The notes: generated by a model not told the origin, from the sequence alone. A DNA stretch of 39,511 nt from a bacterium (GCA_947481115.1 CANKEI010000002.1:1-39511); one strand, 5' to 3'; shown: positions 2,635-36,676, counted from the stretch's first letter. Numbers and translations: made by a program.

Positions 2635-3615
2635 ATGAGATTAAATAATCTATCTCCCGCTCGTCCCGAGCGCAGTCGAGGGATGTTGTGGGCACAGCTT
2701 TTACTGGCGCTATTATTACTCAGTTCAGATCAAGCAACTAAATTCTGGGCAGTTAAATATTTAGTTAATATTATGCCAGTATTTAATTTTTTAAATTTGA
2801 TCAAGCTCGATTTAGAGCTAGCTTTTAATCAGGGTGTTAGTTGGGGTTTATTTAGCGCGCATAATTTAATGGCACGATTAAGTTTAATAGCGGCAATTTC
2901 AGTTATTTTAATTTATTTGATTTTTTATACTAAGCAGAGATTGCGGGCTGGCAAAACTATTTTAGCTGAAAGCTTAATTATTGCTGGCGCAATTTCTAAT
3001 TTAATTGATCGTTTATATTATGGTGCGGTAATCGATTTCATACACGTTAGTTTTAAATTTAATAATTTAAATTGGGACTTTCCCATTTTTAATTTAGCTG
3101 ATGTGGGAATTTTTATCGGTGTTTGTTGTATGTTATTTAGGGAGTATTATCCTGAAAAAAATAATCTTTTTTGTAAAAATTTAGCTACTTTAGGTGATTT
3201 GGGTAATTGGCAAGCGCCGGGAACTTGGGGAACATTAGCAGCTGTACCAGTGGTGTTTTTAGCTAGGCAATATTGTAATAATTTAATTTATTTAGGTTTA
3301 GTTATTACGGTAATAATTAGTGCGTATTTAATTATTTATAAATCTAGTAATTATTTCCCAGTTTCTGATGATCAAACAATTATCATCGATGAATTTGCAG
3401 GATTCTGGTGTTGTTTTATTATTACCTGCAAATTTAGTTTACTAGTCTTAGTTTTAAATTTTTTAATTTTTAGATTTTTTGATATTTCTAAAATTTGGCC
3501 CGTCAATTTAGCTGAAAAATTACCAGGAGCACTAGGCGTTTTAGCAGATGATCTAGTCGCAGGCTTATTAACAAATCTTAGTTGGGTGATTTGTGTTAAA
3601 TATATTTTCTGCTAA
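2635..3615 (+). CDS. lspA: fusion protein: lipoprotein signal peptidase II (LspA) N-terminal half plus phosphatidylglycerophosphatase A (PgpA) C-terminal half
   Basis: The N-terminal half has LspA motifs (DQATKFWA, FNQGVSWGLF, ISNLIDRLYYGAVIDFI, FNLADVGIFIG). The C-terminal half has PgpA motifs (PGTWGTLAAVPV, IIIDEFAGFW, FRFFDISKIWP, GVLADDLVAGL). The true start may be ATG 2683 (MLWAQLLL..), which lies inside the repeat. Confidence 0.85.
   Translation: MRLNNLSPARPERSRGMLWAQLLLALLLLSSDQATKFWAVKYLVNIMPVFNFLNLIKLDLELAFNQGVSWGLFSAHNLMARLSLIAAISVILIYLIFYTKQRLRAGKTILAESLIIAGAISNLIDRLYYGAVIDFIHVSFKFNNLNWDFPIFNLADVGIFIGVCCMLFREYYPEKNNLFCKNLATLGDLGNWQAPGTWGTLAAVPVVFLARQYCNNLIYLGLVITVIISAYLIIYKSSNYFPVSDDQTIIIDEFAGFWCCFIITCKFSLLVLVLNFLIFRFFDISKIWPVNLAEKLPGALGVLADDLVAGLLTNLSWVICVKYIFC
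2657..2691 (+). repeat. short variant of the GC-rich palindromic repeat family
   Basis: CCGCTCGTCCCGAGCGCAGTCGAGGGATGTTGTGG. It equals the long copy minus an internal 16-nt segment and a shorter G run. It overlaps the 5' end of the lspA-pgpA ORF. Confidence 0.75.
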
Positions 3616-13984: not shown

Positions 13985-14500
13985 ATGAACCTAAAACCAA
14001 AATTGACACCTAGACTTTCAAATAGCTTATTTAATCAGTTTTTACAAAAATCCAGCTGGGGTTTTACTCTAATTGAACTAATGATCGTAGTGGCGATTAT
14101 CGCTTTTTTATCGATTATTGCAGTACCTAATATCATGAATTTTTTAGCAAAAGCCAAACGCACCGAAGTTTATGTAAATCTCGGGGCCATTTGGGCTGCT
14201 GAAAAATATTATTATAGCGAGCATGGTCGTTATTCTGATGCCTTAACTGGACCTAATGGGATTGGTTGGCGCACCGAAGGTGAGCCGTTATATACTTATG
14301 GTTTTGCGGGTTCTGAAGGCGTAAATTATATGATCGGTAAATTAAAAGCTAGCGGGGCAGATTTAGGTAAATATTCCAGCGCTGGATCAGACGGGTTTAC
14401 TGTAGTCGCCATCGGTGATATTGATGGGGATGGTAAATTAGATGTGATTACCATGAATGATCGGAAGCAGCTTAAAATTGTCGAGGATGATTGTGCTTAA
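13985..14500 (+). CDS. prepilin-type N-terminal cleavage/methylation protein (type IV pilin or GspG-like pseudopilin)
   Basis: A 26-aa leader ends in G, followed by FTLIELMIVVAIIAFL. The mature part is about 145 aa with a C-terminal DxDGDGKLD acidic loop. Confidence 0.85.
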   Translation: MNLKPKLTPRLSNSLFNQFLQKSSWGFTLIELMIVVAIIAFLSIIAVPNIMNFLAKAKRTEVYVNLGAIWAAEKYYYSEHGRYSDALTGPNGIGWRTEGEPLYTYGFAGSEGVNYMIGKLKASGADLGKYSSAGSDGFTVVAIGDIDGDGKLDVITMNDRKQLKIVEDDCA

Positions 14501-16415: not shown

Positions 16416-17168
16416 TTAAAGCATAATTCTGAGTATTAAATCTTGCCAGTAAATATAAGTTATAGCGCCGAGGGCTAAGTAGGGGCCAAAAGGTATTTTA
16501 CCAGAAAATTGGTTATTGCCAGCGAGAATTTGCATGATACCTACTAAAGAACCTAAGAGCGAGCCTAGCAATAAACTTAACCAGCAGCCTATTGGGCCGG
16601 TAAATGAGCCGATAAATGCCAATAAAAATAGATCACCGGTGCCTAAGCCCTGTTTGTTAGTAAAGTAAGCAAACATAAAATTAGTCAGCCAAAGTAAACT
16701 ATAGCCTAAAATAGCGCCCAGGCCGCTATTAATAACTGTGACGGGTAGATAATTAAAATAACTAAAAATTAAACCCAGGGGGATTAAATAGATTGAGACT
16801 AAATTAGAAATTAAAAAAGTCTCAAGATCCGTACGAATCGTGATAATTAGTGCTGAGCAGAAAATAAAATAAGCTAGCCAATATGTGACTGAAAAGTAAT
16901 AAAAGATCGGCAAGATTGTAACTATTGTGAGTAGTTCGATAATGGGATATAAAATCGAGATTGAATGTTGGCATGAACGACAACGGCCCCAAAGTAAGCA
17001 CCAGGACAATACTGGAATTAAGTCACGAGCTTTAAGATTAGTTAGACAGTGGGGGCAAGTGGAGCGTGATTTACTTAATGTGATATTATCGTGCACTAAG
17101 CGATAAGCTAGTTGATTTAAAAAGGATCCCCAGCAGAGTAGCATTATGATTAAGACGATAAGTGTCAT
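16416..17168 (-). CDS. pilD: prepilin peptidase (A24 family, PilD/GspO-like)
   Basis: N-terminal CPHC..CRSC zinc-binding pairs, multiple TM segments, and a GLGTGDLFLLAFIG aspartyl-protease motif. Confidence 0.88.
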   Translation of the reverse strand: MTLIVLIIMLLCWGSFLNQLAYRLVHDNITLSKSRSTCPHCLTNLKARDLIPVLSWCLLWGRCRSCQHSISILYPIIELLTIVTILPIFYYFSVTYWLAYFIFCSALIITIRTDLETFLISNLVSIYLIPLGLIFSYFNYLPVTVINSGLGAILGYSLLWLTNFMFAYFTNKQGLGTGDLFLLAFIGSFTGPIGCWLSLLLGSLLGSLVGIMQILAGNNQFSGKIPFGPYLALGAITYIYWQDLILRIML

Positions 17169-21605: not shown

Positions 21606-22709
21606 TTACTTAGCTTTTAATTTCTTTAAATAACTTTCAGCATTCAAGCCAGCTTTATAGCCTTCACCAACGGCTGTCGGAATCTGGTGCATCGACTTAT
21701 CAGTCACATCGCCAACCGCCCAAACCCCAGGCACTGAAGTCTGGAGGGTTTGGCAATCAACTACGATTTCGTTTTTATCGTTGAACGTAACTTGATCTTT
21801 AAAAATATAACTATTTGGGATCTGGCCGAGTGCTACAAAGACCCCCTCAACATTCAGTGTTTTAATTTCTTTAGTTTTTAAATTAGTATATTTTATCGCA
21901 CAAACCTTAGTTCCATTTCCCACTATCTCGTTTAAATCACAGTTATTTAAAACCGTAACTTTTGGATCATTGGCATGATTCAATAACATATCCGGCCCCT
22001 TTAGTTGGTCGTTTTTGTTAATTATAAAAATTTGGCTGGCAAACTGCTTAAGTTGCCCAGTTTCACGTAAAGCTCCGTATCCTCCCCCGATCACCGCAAT
22101 CACTTTATTTTTAAAAAATGGTCCATCGCAATTAGCACAAAAAGCTACACCTTTACCAATATGTTCTTTTTCGCCAGGGACATTAGTGGAGATTGGCTTG
22201 TTGCCAGTGGCGATAATCACAGCTGGTGATTTAATCGTTTGGCCACCACTTAGTTCTAACTTAAATGGCGAGCTAGAAAAATCGACTTTGGTAACTTTCT
22301 GGGGCACAAACTGAACATTGTTTTGCAGGGCATGTTCACGCATGCTGGTCATTAAATCCGGACCTTCGATATCTGGGATGCCGGGATAATTTTGAATGGT
22401 GCCAGCCTTCATGGGCGTACCTCCAGCTAATTCGCCTTCGATCACCATAATATTACGTTTAGGACTATCGCCATTAGCACGGCCTAGATAAATCGCGGAA
22501 CCCATGCCACTGGGGCCAGAGCCGATGATCGCGACTTGTGGATCAGAAATTAATTCAGCTTCAGGTAGGTTAATTTGTTTAGCGGGGCAGTGCGATATGG
22601 TACTAGGGGTTAGGCTCGTATGGTGTCCGGATTTACTAAAAAGTTTAGTGTAACCAGTTAAGCTTAGGGCTAAATTTAAAATTAAGATTAAATTATTTAC
22701 TAGCTTCAT
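21606..22709 (-). CDS. trxB: thioredoxin-reductase-like FAD-dependent disulfide oxidoreductase with an N-terminal hydrophobic leader
   Basis: VAIIGSGPSGMGSA (FAD), redox-active CANCDG, VIGGGYGA, GVWAVGDV. An extra segment of about 55 aa starts MKLVNNLILILNLALSLTG. Confidence 0.75.
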   Translation of the reverse strand: MKLVNNLILILNLALSLTGYTKLFSKSGHHTSLTPSTISHCPAKQINLPEAELISDPQVAIIGSGPSGMGSAIYLGRANGDSPKRNIMVIEGELAGGTPMKAGTIQNYPGIPDIEGPDLMTSMREHALQNNVQFVPQKVTKVDFSSSPFKLELSGGQTIKSPAVIIATGNKPISTNVPGEKEHIGKGVAFCANCDGPFFKNKVIAVIGGGYGALRETGQLKQFASQIFIINKNDQLKGPDMLLNHANDPKVTVLNNCDLNEIVGNGTKVCAIKYTNLKTKEIKTLNVEGVFVALGQIPNSYIFKDQVTFNDKNEIVVDCQTLQTSVPGVWAVGDVTDKSMHQIPTAVGEGYKAGLNAESYLKKLKAK

Positions 22710-29592: not shown

Positions 29593-31743
29593 ATGTCAGA
29601 AGAAAATAAGTTTCAGTCGCAAAAATTTTATGTCACCACGCCGATCTATTATCCGACGGCTAAGCCACACCTAGGTTCATTATATTCGACGTTACTAGCT
29701 GACGTAGCTGCGCGTTGGCATAAATTGTTAGGTGCCCAAGTTTTTTTCTTAACTGGCACCGATGAACATGGTCAGAAGATTGCCCAAGCTGCCGAAAAAG
29801 CCGGAGTTGCGCCTCAAACATTTGTAGATAATCTAGTTGGTGAATATACCAGTATGTGGCATAAATATGAGCTGGCTTATGATAAATTTATTCGTACAAC
29901 AGATCCAGAGCATGTGCAAGCTGTGCAACTGTGGTTACAAAAATTAATCGATCGCGATCTAATTTATAAAGCTAATTACGAAGGGTATTATTGTACCCCC
30001 TGCGAAACTTTTATTACCGAAACTGCTGTGCGCGAGCAAGATCTAGCAGTAATTTTATGCACAGCATGTCAACGTCCAACCAGTTATTTAACTGAAGAAA
30101 ATTATTTTTTCAGATTAGCTAAATATCAGGACCAGTTATTAAATTTTTATGCGCAAAACCCCAATTTTATTGTACCAAAAGAGCGTCTCAATGAAGTTAT
30201 AAAATTTGTCGAATCTGGCTTAAGAGACTTATGTTTATCGCGTAGTACAGTCACTTGGGGTATAAAATTTCCGGGCGACAGTAAACATGTCACTTATGTC
30301 TGGGCCGACGCACTAAATAATTATATCTCTGGTGTAGGCTACGGTAATCCCCATAAAACAGTCGAATTTAATTTTTGGTGGCCCGCTGATTTGCATGTGA
30401 TGGGCAAAGATATTGTACGATTCCATGCGGTTTATTGGCCTGCATTTTTATTAGCTAGCGATTTGCCATTACCCAAGCAACTATTAGTCCATGGTTGGCT
30501 GAAAATCAACGATCAGAAAATGTCTAAGTCATTAGGTAATGCCGTTGACCCGGAAGAGTTATTAAAAACTTATGGTGCTGATCCAGTGCGCTATTATTTA
30601 GTTAGCCAAATGGCGATTACGCGCGACTCTGAGTTTAGCATTTTAGATTTAGAGCAGAAAATATCTAGTGATTTAGCGAACGATTTAGGAAACTTATTAA
30701 ATCGCACGGTACAGTTAGCAGCACAAAATAACTGTCTTAATTTGCCAGTAATTACTAATTGGTCTGAGAGTTCGCAAAAATTAAAACTTAGCGCACTAAC
30801 AATACTAGATAATTATGCCCAGTATATGCACGATAATTGTGCTTATTTAGCGTTAGCTGAACTTTGGAAATTAATTAAATTAACTAATGCTTTTTTTCAT
30901 GAACAAGCACCTTGGGTATTAGCTAAAACTGATAGTGTAAAATTTATCGAAGTTTTATCAGCAGTTTGTCACATCTTGCGTGCCATAGCGATCTTAAGTT
31001 GGCCCGTTTTGCCAAGCAAGTCACACGCACTATTACAACGCTTAGGCCAAAACAATTTAGCACTAAATTTAGCAGATATACATAACTTACTCCCGCTCGC
31101 CCCACAACCCGCTCATCTCGAGTGGAGCGTAGCGCAGTCGAGGGAGGGATGTGGCGAGCACAAACGTACTGTAGTTTCTAAAAATTTAATTCTCGAGTTA
31201 AAAAATAACCACTGGGATTTAGATTTTAATTTACAAGCTGGCGAGCCATTGTTTACGCGTTACGATCAAGTGAAAACTTTTATTAACCCGCTCACCCCGA
31301 GTGAAATTGAGGGGCGTTTAGGGTTAAGTAAAAAAAATAACTCAGAAAATAAAAAAGTTATCGAAAAAACCATTATGTCCACTGAAAATATTAATCAAGA
31401 AAATTTAATACCAAATTATATTACCATCGAAGAGTTAACTAAAGTTGAATTAGTAGTTGGCACAATTATTGCTTGTGATCCCATCGAAAAATCTGACAAG
31501 CTTTATAAGCTACAAGTTGATTGTGGTACTTACGGCGTCCGCCAAATTTTATCTGGTATAAAACAACATTTTGCGCCAGCAGATCTATTAAATCGGCAAG
31601 CGCTATTTGTCTTAAATTTGAAGCCTAGATTAATGCTAGGTTTAGAATCTCAGGGCATGATGTTATTAGCTAAAGACGCGGTCGGTAATTTACAAAGCAT
31701 GGCGCCGCTAGGAATTGTCCCTAATGGCACTAGATTGTCATAA
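29593..31743 (+). CDS. metG: methionine--tRNA ligase with a C-terminal tRNA-binding (EMAP/Trbp111-like) domain
   Basis: YYPTAKPHLGSLYS (HIGH-like), KMSKSLGN, zinc-knuckle Cys pairs, and a C-terminal VELVVGTI..KLYKLQVDCG domain. Repeat-derived inserts lie in the linker. Confidence 0.92.
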   Translation: MSEENKFQSQKFYVTTPIYYPTAKPHLGSLYSTLLADVAARWHKLLGAQVFFLTGTDEHGQKIAQAAEKAGVAPQTFVDNLVGEYTSMWHKYELAYDKFIRTTDPEHVQAVQLWLQKLIDRDLIYKANYEGYYCTPCETFITETAVREQDLAVILCTACQRPTSYLTEENYFFRLAKYQDQLLNFYAQNPNFIVPKERLNEVIKFVESGLRDLCLSRSTVTWGIKFPGDSKHVTYVWADALNNYISGVGYGNPHKTVEFNFWWPADLHVMGKDIVRFHAVYWPAFLLASDLPLPKQLLVHGWLKINDQKMSKSLGNAVDPEELLKTYGADPVRYYLVSQMAITRDSEFSILDLEQKISSDLANDLGNLLNRTVQLAAQNNCLNLPVITNWSESSQKLKLSALTILDNYAQYMHDNCAYLALAELWKLIKLTNAFFHEQAPWVLAKTDSVKFIEVLSAVCHILRAIAILSWPVLPSKSHALLQRLGQNNLALNLADIHNLLPLAPQPAHLEWSVAQSREGCGEHKRTVVSKNLILELKNNHWDLDFNLQAGEPLFTRYDQVKTFINPLTPSEIEGRLGLSKKNNSENKKVIEKTIMSTENINQENLIPNYITIEELTKVELVVGTIIACDPIEKSDKLYKLQVDCGTYGVRQILSGIKQHFAPADLLNRQALFVLNLKPRLMLGLESQGMMLLAKDAVGNLQSMAPLGIVPNGTRLS
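31093..31159 (+). repeat. diverged long copy of the GC-rich palindromic repeat family, in-frame inside metG
   Basis: CCGCTCGCCCCACAACCCGCTCATCTCGAGTGGAGCGTAGCGCAGTCGAGGGAGGGATGTGGCGAGC. Both termini are conserved. Confidence 0.7.
31287..31316 (+). repeat. possible core fragment of the repeat family inside metG
   Basis: CCCGCTCACCCCGAG matches 15 nt of the long-copy core and is followed by ..TGAGGGG. Confidence 0.35.
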
Positions 31744-31789: not shown

Positions 31790-32644
31790 TTATTTTAAGC
31801 TTGATGCTGTGCAAATTTTAGTATTTATCCCAGGGCCGTTACTACAAATTGCACCAGTAACACAATCACTGGAACTGTTATAACAACTGTTGCCTATTTT
31901 AATTTTGCATTGATTAGTGCTTGAATCACAACTTGTGCCAACTGCACAATTATTGTTTGGTGGAGTAGTATTGCAAGTACCATTCAATGGGATAGGGCAG
32001 GTGCTAGTATCACATTGCAACAACTCTGGAGTTTGGCAACAATCTTGATTATATAAACAAATAGTACTAGCTGTTCTGCAAGTGGTTACTGGTGGCAATA
32101 GAGCTGCAATAGTTGCTTGGTCAGTCTGATAGTCTATGGTACCTGGAGTAGCTGAATTAAAATGAATAATCACCCAATCTAAAGCAGTAGCGTCCATGAA
32201 CTTAGGTGGATAATTTACAATTGTATCTGGGTTGGCTCCACAAGCTAAAAATAGTTGGACTGCAGTTTGTGTGGGAGTTTTATTATAATAGATTCCATTA
32301 TTCGCTGCGATTATTAATGGTGGAAATCCAGATGTATTATTGGTATTCAGTAGGTCCAGCAAACAGTTATTATTTAACCAGTTTTGCTGATTAGTAGCGG
32401 GAGGTGCTACAGGTGTTGTTATGCCATAACCTTCATATAAATTGCGATTAATGTTGCTATTTATCCCGGTAAATACATTATAGAGTGTTATCAGATCGCA
32501 ATTAGCTGGAATCACAGTAGTAGAGCAAGTAGTCGATAAACTAGCTGGTGCTAGAGTACTAATTAATATAAGTATACTAATCAGTACTCTAGTCAAAAAC
32601 ATAGCATCTGTTTTTAGCAAAACCTTATATTTTAGCTTTGCCAT
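31790..32644 (-). CDS. secreted protein with one ankyrin-like repeat and a Cys-rich C-terminal module
   Basis: Hydrophobic leader (FLTRVLISILILISTLAPA), ANK-like PLIIAANNG..LFLACGANPD, and a C-terminal 90 aa with about 17 Cys in CxxGxxC-like spacing. An alternative start is at 32602. Confidence 0.6.
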   Translation of the reverse strand: MAKLKYKVLLKTDAMFLTRVLISILILISTLAPASLSTTCSTTVIPANCDLITLYNVFTGINSNINRNLYEGYGITTPVAPPATNQQNWLNNNCLLDLLNTNNTSGFPPLIIAANNGIYYNKTPTQTAVQLFLACGANPDTIVNYPPKFMDATALDWVIIHFNSATPGTIDYQTDQATIAALLPPVTTCRTASTICLYNQDCCQTPELLQCDTSTCPIPLNGTCNTTPPNNNCAVGTSCDSSTNQCKIKIGNSCYNSSSDCVTGAICSNGPGINTKICTASSLK

Positions 32645-35313
32645 AAAGCCTCCAAGTGGCTAATTAAGGCAACATAATCTTTAGGTGTAATTTCTGGCCA
32701 ATTAAAACCTCTATTAGATTTAAGATAAATAAAAGCCAGCGCTGATAATTTAACTGGCGAAGCTGATGTTTCAGCGCGTACTTGATTAATGATGTCCGCT
32801 AAAATATTTTTGTCCCCAGAATCTTTATAGGCGGCAACTAATTTAATATAGCCCGGACCTTTACCAGCTACTTCACTAGTATTCATTCCTAAAGGCCACT
32901 TGGCTGGACCAGGCACGAATGGTGGCTTAGCACTTGTGCCACCGCCTGAGCCACCACCAGCGCCAGAACTTGCATCCGCCGCAGGAGGACTACCTTTAGA
33001 TTCAGCAAAGCCGCCACCTGAGCCACCGCCGCCAGCGCCAGATCCACCAGTACTTGCTCCAAAAATTTTGGCAAATTGTTGATTAGCTTGCTCAGATAGG
33101 TCAGCAATTTCAGAGATTACATTTTGAGATATAACATCGTCTTTAGTGAAACCTAGTGTCAACGATTTAGCTACTATGGCTTCAAGTTGGCTTAATAAAA
33201 ATTCTGCCCTGCTTTTATCTCTTGACATGACTCCACTATGCAATTGTGCCCTAAGTTCTTTGGCATCTTGTAGTAATTTTCTTAATGCTGTCCAGGCTGG
33301 AATTTCACCGCTGCCAGCGCTAGCTTTAAGTCCTTCAATGCGTGCGCTTAAAAGAGCTAGTCTATCATTTATTTTAGTTATAAAACGCGTTTGAACTTGT
33401 GTTATCATAGAATTTAATTGACTAGCAATTGCGGCTAGATTATTTGGATCAATTGCCGACGGAGATGATAGCCCCGTGCTCCAATAAGCCTTAGTAGCTT
33501 CACTGATTTGGTCCACCGATCTTTTAGCATTATCTAAATCTGTAGTTATCTGCTGCCTGACGGCAGCTTGGACTTGCCCGATAGATGCTAGGAGGTTATT
33601 CAGTTTGTGTATGTCAGCAGTTGTTGGTTTAGCTTCATATGTTCCAATATATTTCTCGATATCTAAAATAAACGTATCCAAATCTTTCATACCTATCGTA
33701 ATTGTAATTTTTTCCAGCGCTGTATCTTGAATCTGTTTATATAAGTCTTTGATATTTTGCGTTACACCATTCAAGCTAGTTTCTATTCTGGTGAAATAGT
33801 CAATATCCACCGGAGTCCATGTATATTCAGCTCTTATTTTTGTAAAGAACTGCTGCGTTTTTTCTATTAATCTTGCTAGCAAGAAAGATGCACTTTGGTC
33901 CCTTAGGCTGATTAAATTTATTTCAAGCAAGCTTATGAAATCAGCGCTACTTATCGTGTCAGCAGTAAGTTTGTCGCTGAGAGCTGTGATCTTGGACCTT
34001 ACTTCATTAAGCATACCATTAAAATTTCCATATAAACTATGCAATTCTATTCGCACATCATCAAAATTTCCTACAGATCCACCACCAGCAGATCCACCTG
34101 ATAAAATCCCAATGATTTTTTCAAGTGCAGGTATATCAGCGGTTGGTGCTTCGCTTCTACTTAGAGCTGATTTCACCAATTCTAAACTTTCATTAGCAAT
34201 GTCGAGTGCAGTTTTACCTGTGGCATCTTTTATACTAACATTAGCGTTCTTTCGCAGGAGCAGATCTATTTTATTTTCAATATTTGATTGCCCTTTAAAA
34301 GCTGCCAAAACAGCTAGCATTAGTGGGGTGTGACCATTTGTATCTTGTGCATTAATATCAGCACCATAGTCTATTAATAGTTTGAGATACTGGGTAGCAT
34401 TTAAGCTTGGTGAAATAATGGTATACATAATGGGAGTTTGTTGTTCATGGTTATTTGGAGGTGTGAAATTAACCCAAGCTGCGCGTTGTGCAACGGTGGC
34501 TCTTTTTAAAAAAGCCACTAAATTATTGAAAATTTCCAGACTTTCAGCAGCTTCTCTGTCTTTATTTTCCTGGAGTCTGTGCTGTTCAGCTTCGGCATGT
34601 TCTGCTGTTTCATGTTTTGCGTCTCGATGAGCGTCAGCGTCCACCTCAGTTAAAGTGCCAGATAAGTTAAGTAAAATAGCATGTATTAAAACAGTTTGGC
34701 CATTTAAATCACTAGCATTTAGTATCTCATAAGCGGTGGCATTTGTAGCTGCATCGTGACCGAAAGGGGGGATATTGCTAATTAATAATTTTACCATGTC
34801 GATGCAATTAGCATCGATCGCTAGCATTAGAGCTGTTTTATTTCCTAACTTAATAGCAACACTGTTAAGCTTGGCGCCATAACTTAACGCTTCTCTAACA
34901 TTGGCTATGCCGATAGCATTACATACGCTGGCGAATTTTAGCAATTTTTCAGAAGATTGAGATTCCGGCGTGGCAAATCCATTATCTAAATCATAGGCTA
35001 GCTTTAAAGCATCATCTGTTAAAATTCTTCTTGCTTCGCCAACTTCTTTCCATTTTTTTGCTTGAATAGATTGCTCATCGATTGTAAGCCTGTTGGAAGA
35101 ATCGGGATGCCATTTTCTTAGAAGCTTTTTGATTGCTACATCAATTTCTCGATCAGAAGCGCTTGTAACTAGATCAATAGCTGCATAAATATTAGCAGCC
35201 GGTTTGAACATAGCTAGCAAGTTGACAGAGCCTAGTAATAATGGTGTTAAGATTAAGATATATGTTATGGCAGACAGTGTCTTAGTCGCCAATTTGTTAT
35301 TTAATACTTTCAT
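32632..35313 (-). CDS. signal-anchor plus J-domain (HPD) plus ankyrin-repeat plus long helical region plus Gly-rich protein
   Basis: MKVLNNKLATKTLSAITYILILTPLLL.. then a J domain (IYAAIDL..LRKWHPDSS..ILTDDALKLAYD). ANK repeats follow (GNKTALMLAIDANCIDMVKLLI; NGHTPLMLAV; TGKTALDIA), then poly-Gly/Ser linkers. Confidence 0.75.
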   Translation of the reverse strand: MKVLNNKLATKTLSAITYILILTPLLLGSVNLLAMFKPAANIYAAIDLVTSASDREIDVAIKKLLRKWHPDSSNRLTIDEQSIQAKKWKEVGEARRILTDDALKLAYDLDNGFATPESQSSEKLLKFASVCNAIGIANVREALSYGAKLNSVAIKLGNKTALMLAIDANCIDMVKLLISNIPPFGHDAATNATAYEILNASDLNGQTVLIHAILLNLSGTLTEVDADAHRDAKHETAEHAEAEQHRLQENKDREAAESLEIFNNLVAFLKRATVAQRAAWVNFTPPNNHEQQTPIMYTIISPSLNATQYLKLLIDYGADINAQDTNGHTPLMLAVLAAFKGQSNIENKIDLLLRKNANVSIKDATGKTALDIANESLELVKSALSRSEAPTADIPALEKIIGILSGGSAGGGSVGNFDDVRIELHSLYGNFNGMLNEVRSKITALSDKLTADTISSADFISLLEINLISLRDQSASFLLARLIEKTQQFFTKIRAEYTWTPVDIDYFTRIETSLNGVTQNIKDLYKQIQDTALEKITITIGMKDLDTFILDIEKYIGTYEAKPTTADIHKLNNLLASIGQVQAAVRQQITTDLDNAKRSVDQISEATKAYWSTGLSSPSAIDPNNLAAIASQLNSMITQVQTRFITKINDRLALLSARIEGLKASAGSGEIPAWTALRKLLQDAKELRAQLHSGVMSRDKSRAEFLLSQLEAIVAKSLTLGFTKDDVISQNVISEIADLSEQANQQFAKIFGASTGGSGAGGGGSGGGFAESKGSPPAADASSGAGGGSGGGTSAKPPFVPGPAKWPLGMNTSEVAGKGPGYIKLVAAYKDSGDKNILADIINQVRAETSASPVKLSALAFIYLKSNRGFNWPEITPKDYVALISHLEALWQS

Positions 35314-35373
35314 AAAAACCCCCAAAAATTATAAGTTTAAAATTATTTTACTAATCTATATCTGAATCTTTAT

Positions 35374-36180
35374 TTACCTGTCACCAGCTCCTGTACTACC
35401 ACTACTAGCTTCTAATCTAGCAATTTTAGCTGTTGCTAATCTTGACAATTCTCTGAGCTCACTAAAAATTTTTGCATCACTGGTAGTACTAGTACTACCA
35501 GAAATAGCACTAGCGTTTCTAACTATATCATTGAGCTCAGTCAGTAATATTTTAGCTTCAGCTAGATGACCTAGCCTAGTCGCTCTGTCGATCTCGCTAG
35601 CTGTTGTTTTTGCTAGTTGTGACAAGATACTCATTCCGTTGGCGCTAGTAGCCATAGCTTGTTTTGCCATTTTTAATAATCTCTCAATTTCACTTTTACT
35701 AACGCTTGTTTTAACACTACTAGCAGAACTTATTTCACTGCCAGCACCACCACTACTAGCGCCAGCACCATAAGAACTTGTTCCACCGCCAGCACCACTA
35801 GCACCAGCAGATCTTGTTCCAGTACCAACACCAGCACCAATACCAATACCAGCAGCTTCCAATTGAGTTTCTTTAGTTTGATTTTTAAGAATATTCCAGG
35901 CTTCGGCGATTTCTAACCATTTATCTCGCTGGATAGCTTGTTCTTCAGCAGTCAGCCGTAAAAATCTATCGGGATGCCATTTTCGTGCAAGCTGTATGAA
36001 AGCTGCTCTAATTTGAGAGTCCGTAGCATCTTCAGTTAGACCTAGTGCGGCATAGTGATCTCTTGCGGGGGTAAACATAGCTAGTACATTAATAGAGTTT
36101 AGTAGCAATGGCGTTAAGACCAAAATATATGCGATAGTAGACAGTGTCTTAGTCGCCAATTTGTTCTTTAATATTTTCAT
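35374..36180 (-). CDS. signal-anchor plus J-domain (HPD) plus Gly-rich linker plus helical region protein, paralog of 32632-35313
   Basis: MKILKNKLATKTLSTIAYILVLTPLLL.. then DHYAALGLTEDATDSQIRAAFIQLARKWHPDRF. The N-terminal 45 aa are near-identical to the neighbouring gene. Confidence 0.75.
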   Translation of the reverse strand: MKILKNKLATKTLSTIAYILVLTPLLLNSINVLAMFTPARDHYAALGLTEDATDSQIRAAFIQLARKWHPDRFLRLTAEEQAIQRDKWLEIAEAWNILKNQTKETQLEAAGIGIGAGVGTGTRSAGASGAGGGTSSYGAGASSGGAGSEISSASSVKTSVSKSEIERLLKMAKQAMATSANGMSILSQLAKTTASEIDRATRLGHLAEAKILLTELNDIVRNASAISGSTSTTSDAKIFSELRELSRLATAKIARLEASSGSTGAGDR

Positions 36181-36193: not shown

Positions 36194-36676
36194 AAAATAA
36201 TTTAAGCTGTAGCTCTATTTCTACTAAATTATAAGTTTAAAATATTATTTTTTATAACTATTTAACTATATTAATTCATAATTACAGGTTAATGGATTGG
36301 TTAAGTGAAAAGCAAGAGTTTAGTTTTTTTGGAATAAATATTTAAAACAGGGTTTAATTTTATATATAAACCGTTGCTTTTTTGTGGGTGAGTAGTCTAC
36401 TCTGAGGAAGAGGGTAGAATATTTGTGGTGGTTATGTTTATAAAGTCGCTCTACTTCACTAAAGTTTCGTAGGGCTGCGGTGAGCCGCGGGAGGTTATGA
36501 TGACGCAATTTGTAATAATTTTATGCATGCTATTATCTGCTGGATTTACAGTAAGTCTATGCAATTTAGGGCTTAAATAGTAGTTCCAGGCAGGTTTATT
36601 AAACTATGTATTGGTTTAATGCTATGCTTACAGGCAGTCTATATTAATAGACTTCTTCCGTAATTCACAGTTTCTA

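Follow-up and report, generated by a model that had tools for sequence, protein, structure and literature searches.

The HopI1 protein of Pseudomonas syringae is an effector delivered to the host, where its HPD-containing J-domain recruits host Hsp70 (summarised in PMC6802931). Plasmodium falciparum also exports J-proteins (the PEXEL Hsp40s) into its host cell; some of these carry HPD, and in others ('type IV', HxD) the motif is corrupted (PMC6802931). In the Dependentiae, signal-peptide-bearing ankyrin proteins are described as typical putative effectors; Chromulinavorax destructans has 98 ankyrin proteins, signal peptides are present on 44% of Chromulinavorax coding sequences and on 78% of its ankyrin proteins, and the export route proposed is Sec together with vesicles (PMC6561590). 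Type II secretion components, including two copies of gspD, are part of the core of TM6 genomes (PMC4776705).

The locus described here lies in a window of 39,511 nucleotides (the whole stretch of DNA that was analysed) from an uncultured Babeliales (Dependentiae/TM6) bacterium; a syntenic locus is present within a Candidatus Babeliales MAG, with a TopA that is approximately 91% identical. The Babeliales are obligate parasites of protists. Two genes, A893 and B268 (Table 1), have a conserved N-terminus followed by a genuine HPD J-domain, and the coordinates and quoted features of a preliminary description are all reproduced, including LLRKWHPDSS in A893, LARKWHPDRF in B268, GAGVGTGT..GAGGG, and GGSGAGGGGSGGG. 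Contigs from several independent samples carry an identical A893 gene. Its stop codon is overlapped by 13 nt by the downstream gene C284, with which it is probably co-transcribed; C284 is called on loci L001 and L002 but is absent from L005, and has no match in Pfam and NCBIfam profile searches. The family is an orphan one, with five representatives among 1.84 billion proteins, always located between topA and metG, and the only close homolog of B268 is P0122 (87% identical), at the syntenic locus L005.

Table 1. Features of the J-domain locus, with positions in the window.
Feature	Coordinates	Strand	Description and basis
Gene C284	31790..32644	-	Downstream gene; signal-peptide-like N-terminus, one ankyrin-like motif, Cys-rich C-terminus; ORF
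Gene A893	32632..35313	-	893 aa from ATG; N to C: signal peptide, J-domain, ankyrin repeats, helical module, Gly-rich linker, tail; ORF, Pfam, identical copies in several samples
A893 variable C-terminal tail, residues 801-893	32635..32913	-	
A893 Gly-rich linker, residues 752-800	32914..33060	-	Conserved GGGFAESKG motif; mosaic breakpoint against L005 here
A893 family-defining helical module, residues 416-751	33061..34068	-	Long helices, 25-59 residues each
A893 ankyrin-repeat region, residues 121-385	34159..34953	-	Pfam Ank_2, Ank, Ank_3, Ank_4, Ank_5
A893 J-domain, residues 42-108	34990..35190	-	HPD codons 35101-35109; Pfam, PDB matches
A893 signal peptide (predicted), residues 1-34	35212..35313	-	Rule-based sequence analysis
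Exact 18-nt repeat, 5' of A893	35326..35343	-	ATTTTAAACTTATAATTT (minus-strand reading); TATAAT-like -10 box inside; repeat family D11, alignment
Gene B268	35374..36180	-	268-aa class C J-domain protein; N to C: signal peptide, J-domain, Gly-rich linker, ~100-aa helical C-terminus; ORF, Pfam
B268 C-terminal helical region, residues 161-268	35377..35700	-	BLASTP
B268 Gly/Ala/Ser/Thr-rich linker, residues 111-148	35737..35850	-	Translation; GGT/GCT-rich repeated DNA (families D2-D6)
B268 J-domain, residues 41-105	35866..36060	-	HPD codons 35968-35976; Pfam, PDB phmmer
B268 signal peptide (predicted), residues 1-34	36079..36180	-	Rule-based sequence analysis
18-nt promoter-like repeat, second copy, 5' of B268	36226..36243	-	Repeat family D11, alignment
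Conserved non-coding region, between topA and first J-gene	36271..36604	. (unassigned)	

Both J-domains score above the gathering score of 27.8 of the Pfam DnaJ profile (PF00226), at 35.1 bits for A893 and 48.8 bits for B268, which bears out their initial assignment. The B268 J-domain has phmmer matches to J-domains in the PDB with E-values from 9e-9 to 1e-5, the best being to a Plasmodium Hsp40 (6rzy), and that of A893 matches DNAJB8, Sec63, and E. coli DnaJ (E ~2e-6); A893 has a long, Sec63-like loop after the HPD motif, and a single gap suffices in the Sec63 alignment. In these PDB matches neither J-domain is clearly eukaryote-like or clearly bacterium-like, and the sequences thus do not point to a particular Hsp70 partner. 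Pfam searches of the two proteins reveal neither a Sec63 Brl domain nor a class B C-terminal domain. The HPD motif is kept in five of seven family members (B268, P0122, A893, P0003, and P0125), which span lineages with saturated synonymous sites. It is changed to HSD in P0002, and in P0124 the J-domain is unrecognisable; the long open reading frames of both are nonetheless intact, so that J-domain activity is dispensable for at least some members. The B268 J-domain is maintained by purifying selection (dN/dS = 0.22 relative to its L005 ortholog), whereas the remainder of the protein is not (11 non-synonymous and 2 synonymous differences across residues 106-268).

The first 98 residues of A893 and B268 are 60% identical by BLASTP (E = 8e-35), and the shared N-terminus noted previously is evident in the leader (residues 1-35), which is 77% identical compared to 51% for the J-domain. 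Approximately 50 nt upstream of the two genes can also be aligned, and contain the exact 18-nt repeat, its TATAAT-like box, and a G-run ribosome-binding site. A second, weak BLASTP segment (E = 5e-4) relates the C-terminal helical region of B268 to A893 residues 703-761. The duplication had been proposed to be recent, but is instead old: identity between the J-domains is down to 51%, dS is saturated at about 1.3, and both paralogs are kept in the sister strain.

The ankyrin repeats of A893, of which at least three had been proposed, are matched over residues 158-182 and 292-383 by the Pfam profiles Ank_2, Ank, and Ank_3, with 59.9, 48.3, and 31.8 bits, respectively. By eye, about 5-6 repeats can be made out across residues 121-385, interrupted by a charged helical insertion (about 215-285). 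NCBIfam models of Legionella AnkG, AnkY, and AnkH match over the ankyrin parts only, at 31-39 bits relative to cut-offs of 500-600. The long helical regions of the preliminary description are also predicted by AlphaFold2 and DSSP, at low confidence (pLDDT of 47 and of 58, the latter for the A893 helical module). This module is common only to P0002, P0003, P0124, and P0125, within one narrow Babeliales clade; a Foldseek search of its model against the PDB gives no match at E <0.5, and by this model it would be an orphan fold. The A893 tail shares only 26-29% identity with P0002 and P0003, and has no DNA similarity to L005 by blastn.

The locus is mosaic and evolves fast, as a site of cassette exchange. 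Blocks of similarity across the family loci have breakpoints that fall in the Gly-rich linkers (e.g. the blastn similarity of A893 to L005 stops at 32962), and two alternative N-terminal cassettes alternate among close strains. The A893 helical module differs from that of the sister strain at 109 non-synonymous and 21 synonymous positions (Nd and Sd; pN/pS ~1.5), compared to a pN/pS of 0.11 for metG in the same strain pair (p = 1e-10 for the difference); the excess over 1 is not significant relative to neutrality (p = 0.059), and relaxed constraint, rather than diversifying selection, could account for it. The non-coding region upstream of the J-domain genes occurs at each of the five related loci and is 97% identical to that of L008, even though the metG dS relative to L008 is about 1.07; covariation within it is weak, and an Rfam search gave no match.

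Eukaryotic J-proteins of the ER lumen likewise have their J-domain directly behind a signal peptide. Together with the Sec63-like loop, the pN/pS of about 1-1.5 across large parts of A893 and B268, and the J-domain decay in relatives, this would be consistent with degenerating genes, i.e. neutrally drifting and functionless remnants of a horizontally acquired ER-type J-protein (such as ERdj3 or Sec63) with ankyrin repeats. We consider this very improbable, as open reading frames of 268-1243 codons are intact in an AT-rich genome in three lineages with saturated synonymous sites, and identical copies are present in several samples; furthermore, conservation extends to the promoter-like and ribosome-binding elements, both the leader (dN/dS of 0.23 for codons 1-35 in A893 compared to B268) and the J-domain are under purifying selection, and no eukaryotic protein stands out as donor in sequence searches.

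The leaders have the organization of Sec signal peptides. That of B268 has an n-region MKILKNKLATK (charge +4/-0), an h-region TLSTIAYILVLTPLLL, and a c-region NSINVLA in which the -3/-1 rule gives V-L-A, and its best 19-mer has an insertion energy of +2.8 kcal/mol; the corresponding parts of A893 are MKVLNNKLATK, TLSAITYILILTPLLL, and GSVNLLA, and cleavage is predicted before MF in both. The pattern is the same throughout the seven family N-termini: an n-region that carries a charge of +3 or +4 and lacks acidic residues, then 19-28 uncharged residues and, near residues 30-34, an AXA-type site, after which the mature protein would begin neutral or acidic. P0125 (VTLALA/LEE) and P0124 (SLIQA/LDE) provide textbook sites. 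The insertion energies are +1.1 to +2.8 kcal/mol in five of the six leaders scored (P0125 is at 0.0), in the range of the signal-peptide-like leaders of SurA-like and other presumably exported proteins within the window, compared to -4 to +0.7 kcal/mol for most transmembrane helices of its polytopic proteins (one is at +1.4). The charge bias predicts an N-in/C-out orientation, and the export-type leader proposed initially fits, by these rule-based tests and by its conservation in diverged relatives, an N-in Sec signal peptide. In Form-2 relatives the leader and the J-domain are separated by a domain with two or four conserved cysteines, an even number that suggests disulfides made outside the cytoplasm.

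The uncharged stretch is long for a typical h-region (25-28 residues), and an uncleaved signal anchor is therefore possible. The proteins might then be exported but tethered, through a type II signal anchor or association with the envelope or vesicles, and serve mainly as variable structural proteins of the cell surface or periplasm, in which the J-domain is a dispensable, partly decaying appendage and no active recruiter of Hsp70. The intact open reading frames of P0002 and P0124 despite their loss of HPD would agree with this, as would the lack of a fold match pointing to an enzymatic role, and helical modules that, like variable surface antigens, are exchanged between strains and change at a rate equal to or above neutral. 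However, the marginal hydrophobicity, the presence of Pro, Gly, Ser, and Asn in the hydrophobic core, and the conserved AXA-type site favor cleavage, and the retention of HPD and the J-domain fold in most members, with selection on that of B268, argues against a mere appendage; a J-domain is not known to have a role independent of Hsp70. We regard tethering as rather unlikely.

A cytoplasmic role, with the J-domain serving the bacterium's own DnaK either through N-out/C-in insertion or from an internal start at Met35, seems quite unlikely. Met35 is conserved in A893, B268, P0122, and P0003, its putative product MFTPARDHYAALGL... would resemble the DnaJ N-terminus, and membrane-anchored bacterial J-proteins such as DjlA, DjlB, and DjlC are known (PMC8215388). 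However, the G-run lies 5-6 nt upstream of M1 in both genes with nothing comparable in the sequence upstream of M35, codons 1-35 are under selection as protein, and Form-2 relatives have their cysteine-containing domain behind the leader and no equivalent internal start. A DjlA identity, the contrary possibility raised in the preliminary description, does not fit either: the NCBIfam model of DjlA matches over the J part only, with 20 bits where its cut-off is 162, the domain order is opposite (the DjlA J-domain is C-terminal, and those of A893 and B268 directly follow the leader), and the charge bias is contrary.

We therefore favor, with modest confidence, the explanation that this obligate intracellular Babeliales bacterium exports B268 and A893, both class C J-domain proteins, through Sec, and that they serve most likely as secreted effectors to recruit host Hsp70 and activate it. 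As read from the sequence, both genes come with a promoter-like box and a G-run ribosome-binding site of their own, with translation from M1. The Lys-rich, marginally hydrophobic leader would direct passage through SecYEG with probable cleavage after residue 34, leaving a mature protein that begins about five residues ahead of the J-domain, like canonical DnaJ. The periplasm contains neither Hsp70 nor ATP; the J-domain would be inert there, and host Hsp70 is thus the likely target. The steps by which the protein would cross the outer membrane, pass any host membrane, and engage host Hsp70 are ones that we infer. Exit could be through a type II secretion system or outer-membrane vesicles, as the literature on the group and the prepilin peptidase and pilin-like protein encoded in the window suggest, although the window contains no type II secretin or ATPase. 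Within the host compartment, from general J-domain biology, the HPD J-domain would dock with ATP-bound Hsp70 (cytosolic Hsc70 or ER BiP) and trigger hydrolysis, locking Hsp70 onto cargo held by the ankyrin repeats and helical module of A893 or the short helical C-terminus of B268. Fast evolution of the putative partner-binding parts, cassette exchange at the Gly-rich linkers, and J-domain decay in relatives are seen in the sequences; they are typical of proteins that face a host in an arms race, and we interpret them in this way.

Among known J-proteins, DjlA of the Proteobacteria, a DnaK co-chaperone, is likewise a class C protein with an N-terminal hydrophobic segment, but this is an N-out anchor followed by a central domain and a cytoplasm-facing J-domain, whereas A893 and B268 have an N-in leader. 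The eukaryotic ER-lumenal proteins (Sec63 and ERdj3/DNAJB11-type) share a J-domain beyond a Sec-type translocon and an extended post-HPD loop, but their Brl or class B C-terminal domains have no counterpart in A893 and B268, and the sequence identity is that of generic J-domains. Legionella AnkG, AnkY, and AnkH resemble A893 in being ankyrin-repeat proteins of an intracellular bacterium of amoebae, but are secreted by the Dot/Icm type IV system and not with a Sec leader. The signal-peptide ankyrin proteins of the Dependentiae share with A893 the bacterial group, the Sec leader-then-ankyrin layout, and a presumed role in host manipulation (PMC6561590); no J-domain fusion is reported in the literature found on this phylum. 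A893 and B268 may be compared with the exported Plasmodium J-proteins and with HopI1. The corrupted-HPD members of P. falciparum parallel the HSD of P0002 and the J-domain loss of P0124, although Plasmodium is a eukaryote that sends its J-proteins into the ER and on through PEXEL/PTEX and co-exports its own Hsp70-x, whereas A893 and B268 belong to a diderm bacterium and resemble the Plasmodium proteins in sequence only as one generic J-domain resembles another. HopI1 differs in its type III secretion, C-terminal J-domain, and chloroplast target, compared to the Sec-type leader, N-proximal J-domain, and ankyrin repeats or orphan helical module of proteins from a protist parasite of another phylum, and homology beyond the J-domain is not expected. 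It is nonetheless the best functional analogue, by description rather than by sequence comparison, as a host-delivered J-domain protein whose variable non-J region sets its location or target.

Over their first 98 residues the 893-residue and 268-residue J-domain proteins (A893 and B268, respectively) are 60% identical (E = 8e-35), and the ∼50 nt of DNA upstream of the two genes are also related and share an exact repeat of 18 nt that includes a TATAAT-like box; a G-run ribosome-binding site lies 5–6 nt before each ATG. The A893 reading frame is counted from its ATG, a TTG start four codons upstream being judged unlikely, and identical copies of A893 are present on contigs of several independent samples. 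Every sequence string quoted in the preliminary description is found in the two translations, and the canonical J-domain with an HPD tripeptide that it reported in both proteins is confirmed by matches to Pfam DnaJ (PF00226) above the gathering score of 27.8, at 35.1 bits for A893 (residues 42–108) and 48.8 bits for B268 (residues 41–105), with the HPD at residues 69–71 of each. Both proteins match solved J-domains in the PDB (among them DNAJB8, Sec63, Plasmodium Hsp40, DNAJA3 and E. coli DnaJ) that span eukaryotes and bacteria, and the extended loop following the HPD aligns best with Sec63. As to the hallmarks of classes A and B, Pfam gave no DnaJ_C or zinc-finger match in either protein, the Gly-rich linker is without Phe, and the NCBIfam DnaJ equivalogs cover the J part alone, scoring 15–43 bits against cut-offs above 330; no NCBIfam equivalog was found for A893, B268, or C284, the 284-residue product of the gene downstream of A893. 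A893 and B268 are class C (type III) members of the J-domain superfamily, and are not DjlA, DnaJ or CbpA. Ankyrin repeats are present only in A893, as had been described, with matches to Ank_2 (59.9 bits), Ank (48.3), Ank_5 (39), Ank_4 (37.4) and Ank_3 (31.8), all above the Pfam cut-offs.

The A893 family is tiny and is known from metagenomes only. When 1.84 billion representative proteins were searched exhaustively by HMMER with A893 residues 405–893, only five were recovered, namely A893 itself, P0002, P0003, P0125, and P0124, which is encoded at locus L006. A word-index search of 5.8 billion proteins returned only P0002, P0003 and generic ankyrin matches for A893, a single homolog for B268 (P0122, encoded at L005 in a sister strain syntenic with the window), and no match for the leader, Cys-domain and J part of P0125. 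Scans for homologs yielded only an unrelated J-domain in JGI metagenomes and no match in IMG/VR. Among one genome per GTDB species a single related locus was found, L006, in a MAG labelled Candidatus Babeliales bacterium; its family gene lies between topA and metG, and its TopA is about 91% identical to that of the window, which assigns the window to a Babeliales (Dependentiae/TM6) bacterium. All of the family loci are syntenic, adjoining metG, and also topA wherever the contig extends that far.

Two alternative N-terminal layouts are fused to the same helical module (A893 residues 416–751). Form 1 (A893 and P0003) consists of a signal peptide, a J-domain with HPD, and ankyrin repeats, and Form 2 (P0125, P0002 and P0124) of a signal peptide, a Cys-domain, a J-domain, and ∼550 amino acids of helices. 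The J-domain of P0125 is intact, with HPD (Pfam E = 5.7e-13), in P0002 the tripeptide reads HSD and the score of 22.7 bits falls short of the Pfam threshold, and P0124 has lost the tripeptide and has no recognisable J-domain; HPD is kept in P0003 and P0122. To be weighed alongside this pattern of retention and loss is the possibility that these are tethered, variable envelope proteins in which the J-domain is dispensable, which we consider unlikely. The Form-2 Cys-domain contains four conserved cysteines in P0124 and P0125, and two in P0002 after a deletion, in proteins that are otherwise almost cysteine-free; their even number fits with disulfides formed outside the cytoplasm.

The flanking genes define three lineages, the first containing the window and L005 (metG dS 0.07), the second L004 and L006 (topA dS 0.11), and the third L008, the contig encoding P0125. 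Each of the two pairs has one Form-1 and one Form-2 allele, and the divergence between lineages is about equal for both forms (34–46% identity), from which it follows that both cassettes are ancient and have either been swapped or persisted as a polymorphism.

The leaders were assessed using classical rule-based criteria and internal controls from the window, for seven family N-termini (A893, B268, P0122, P0003, P0002, P0124 and P0125). First, the n-region has a charge of +3 or +4 and no acidic residue in all seven. Secondly, each contains an uncharged stretch of 19–28 residues broken by Pro, Gly, Ser or Asn. Thirdly, each has a −3/−1 site at about residues 30–34, followed by neutral or acidic sequence, and those of P0125 (VTLALA/LEE) and P0124 (SLIQA/LDE) are textbook leaders whose sequences are unrelated to that of A893. 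Six leaders were scored on the Hessa biological scale: the best 19-mer is +1.1 to +2.8 kcal/mol in five of them and 0.0 in P0125. The SurA-like leaders of the window, and its other signal-peptide-like leaders, fall in the same range; the transmembrane helices of its permeases, peptidases and pilin are mostly between −4 and +0.7, with one at +1.4. A Tat signal and a lipoprotein signal were rejected by inspection, there being no twin-arginine motif and no lipobox Cys. The export-type leader originally proposed therefore holds as far as rule-based tests of a Sec signal peptide go, an exported J-domain is the best reading of these sequences, and a predicted N-in topology with the J-domain exported is very probable.

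A cytoplasmic location of the J-domain, either as a DjlA-like co-chaperone, the arrangement that the preliminary description set against its own proposal, or by translation from the conserved Met35, is improbable. DjlA has its J-domain at the C-terminus and is N-out/C-in, whereas by the same rule-based criteria the charge bias of the leaders points to N-in/C-out. The NCBIfam DjlA model NF006948 scores B268 at 20.3 bits against a cut-off of 162, over model positions 201–264 only (the J part), and gave no match for A893. A start at Met35 is contradicted by the location of the G-run ribosome-binding site before M1 and not before M35, and by purifying selection on the leader, codons 1–35 having a dN/dS of 0.23 between the paralogs; it also misfits the Form-2 relatives, in which a different domain lies between the leader and the J-domain.

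DNA comparison of the window with L005 reveals a mosaic (Table), with breakpoints located in the Gly-rich linkers. In four family members these linkers contain a motif, GGG[FYTS][AS]ESK[GD], shared across lineages with saturated synonymous sites, whose positions are those of the module boundaries and mosaic breakpoints; it may be where the proteins are processed or modified, or no more than a joint for recombination.

Table. Coordinates of features in the window and, where indicated, in related proteins and loci.
Feature	Position	Strand	Remark
Signal peptidase II-PgpA fusion, one ORF	2635-3615	+	Peptidase_A8 residues 24-168, PgpA residues 183-319
Pilin/pseudopilin-like protein	13985-14500	+	N-methylation motif and FG-GAP-like repeats
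Prepilin peptidase (A24)	16416-17168	-	
Thioredoxin-reductase-like flavoprotein	21606-22709	-	Pyr_redox_2 E = 1e-46
GC-rich repeat, 17-nt cores	2654, 14536, 28957, 31106, 31285, 36705		
metG	29593-31743		
C284	31790-32644	-	
A893	32632-35313	-	
B268	35374-36180	-	
Conserved non-coding block	36271-36604		334 nt
Upstream region, B268, first 23 nt of A893	36677-35291		97% identity to L005
Most of A893 leader (codons 9-34), J-domain, ankyrin repeats	35290-34091		Unrelated to L005
Helical module	34090-32962		89% identity to L005
A893 tail and C284	32961-31747		Unrelated to L005
metG and flank	31746-29000		98% identity to L005
GGG[FYTS][AS]ESK[GD] motif, A893	~32989-33018		A893 residues 766-775
GGG[FYTS][AS]ESK[GD] motif, relatives	P0002 685, 1069; P0003 414, 540; P0124 707, 830		
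Gene with faint DDE_5 match, L008	512-1243	-	

The helical module differs between the window and L005 by 109 non-synonymous and 21 synonymous changes (pN/pS 1.5), in contrast to a pN/pS of 0.11 for metG in the same pair (p = 1e-10); the excess over neutrality is itself not significant (p = 0.059). The B268 J-domain has a dN/dS of 0.22, and residues 106–268 of B268 have 11 non-synonymous and 2 synonymous differences. It is beside these rates, and the Sec63-like loop, that neutral decay of an acquired ER-type J-protein has to be considered, and we regard it as highly improbable. The A893/B268 pair had been taken for a recent duplication and is in fact old: the J-domains are 51% identical with a dS of ∼1.3 (0.54 for the leader), and both paralogs are retained in the sister strain.

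Structure prediction assigns no fold to the helical module. AlphaFold2 gave a mean pLDDT of 47 for full-length A893 with a 3-sequence alignment, which is unusable, and 58 for the module alone with five sequences; these low-confidence models contain long helices only. A Foldseek search of the PDB returned generic helical bundles, none at E < 0.5, and the module is an orphan.

The non-coding block between topA and B268 is conserved at all five related loci and is 97% identical to L008, although the metG dS relative to L008 is ∼1.07. Rfam gave no match to it at E up to 1, it contains no tRNA or tmRNA, and its RNAalifold covariation is weak; it could be a non-coding RNA, or serve as a regulatory leader or as an anchor for recombination at the cassette locus. 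In L008 the gene with a faint DDE_5 transposase match lies upstream of this block, at the position expected for topA, which fits the locus being a recombination hotspot. C284 overlaps the A893 stop by 13 nt and is missing from L005. Its N-terminus resembles a signal peptide, its C-terminus is rich in cysteines, and it contains a single ankyrin-like motif (PPLIIAANNG...LFLACGANPD). It matches no Pfam or NCBIfam family and is probably a further secreted product of this variable locus.

We speculate, tentatively and with considerable doubt, that the topA–metG interval in this Babeliales clade is a dedicated effector-shuffling locus and that the exported J-domain hijacks host Hsp70. Downstream of the conserved non-coding block, the promoter, ribosome-binding site and signal peptide would constitute an 'entry cassette', Gly-rich GGG[FY]AESKG linkers would act as recombination joints, and alternative host-targeting modules (J-domain and ankyrin repeats, or Cys-domain, J-domain and a long helical arm) would be swapped among strains, with long-lived polymorphism in two sister lineages. 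Because the post-HPD loop is Sec63-like, the host Hsp70 could possibly be BiP of the ER. If this reading is true, the locus would encode a family of Sec-delivered J-domain effectors without precedent in bacteria.

Several other genes in the window have functions related to export. SurA-like PPIases with leaders are present, and leader-like starts occur on many of the ORFs. The pilin-like protein and the nearby prepilin peptidase belong either to a type II secretion system or to a type IV pilus, and could provide an outer-membrane route for Sec-exported effectors. It is unusual for signal peptidase II and phosphatidylglycerophosphatase A, both enzymes of envelope biogenesis, to be fused. At its N-terminus the thioredoxin-reductase-like flavoprotein has a hydrophobic stretch resembling a leader (MKLVNNLILILNLALSLTGYTKLF), and it would be unusual for a pyridine-nucleotide disulphide oxidoreductase to be exported or tethered to the membrane. 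We also note a GC-rich repeat, A(A/C)CCCGCTCA(C/T)C(C/T)CGAG, with 6 copies observed in the window against 0.05 expected, three or four of them within coding genes. The two copies in metG coincide with in-frame insertions, two in number, that distinguish its product from the L006 MetRS, and by analogy the repeat resembles Rickettsia palindromic elements, which are in-frame gene insertions.

To our knowledge, cultured Dependentiae/TM6 are all obligate intracellular parasites of protists. Genuine HPD J-domains lie directly behind leaders with Sec characteristics in a protist-parasitic bacterium, within a mosaic, fast-evolving locus. As an overall explanation for A893 and B268, Sec export followed by activation of host Hsp70 is moderately probable. 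The proteins would be exported by Sec, with probable cleavage after residue 34, and would have no J-domain activity in the periplasm, since Hsp70 and ATP are absent there. Release would then be through type II secretion or vesicles, as suggested by the prepilin peptidase in the window and by the literature: in Chromulinavorax destructans, signal peptides occur on 44% of coding sequences and on 78% of 98 ankyrin proteins, and delivery by Sec export and outer-membrane vesicles has been proposed (PMC6561590), and in TM6 genomes type II secretion components are core, with two gspD copies (PMC4776705). Finally, HPD-dependent activation of host Hsp70 would be aimed at targets held by the ankyrin repeats and helical modules.

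Accounts of host control by the Dependentiae, parasites that are widespread and almost entirely uncultured, consist essentially of lists of signal-peptide ankyrin proteins. An exported J-domain would have a specific and well-understood activity, HPD-dependent Hsp70 activation, making it a biochemically testable candidate; because recombinant domains can be assayed in vitro, with no culture needed, it offers a rare opportunity to study the mechanism of a Dependentiae effector. The mosaic, fast-evolving locus would, in addition, be a compact case from nature of effectors diversifying module by module. A limited literature search turned up neither Sec-leader J-domain proteins nor J-ankyrin fusions, whether in Dependentiae or elsewhere among bacteria.

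In layout, the closest known proteins are the signal-peptide ankyrin proteins of Dependentiae (PMC6561590). HopI1 of Pseudomonas syringae and the exported Hsp40s of Plasmodium, a group with HxD 'type IV' variants, are the nearest known counterparts in function (PMC6802931). Homology to HopI1 outside of the J-domain is very unlikely, because the exhaustive HMMER search with the non-J C-terminal part of A893 found only the five family members. A893 and B268 have a Sec leader where HopI1-type effectors have a type III signal. If the proposed export and Hsp70 activation are true, a Sec-delivered bacterial case would join the few pathogens that export J-proteins of their own and thereby take over host chaperones, represented at present by HopI1, the Plasmodium exported Hsp40s and viral T antigens.
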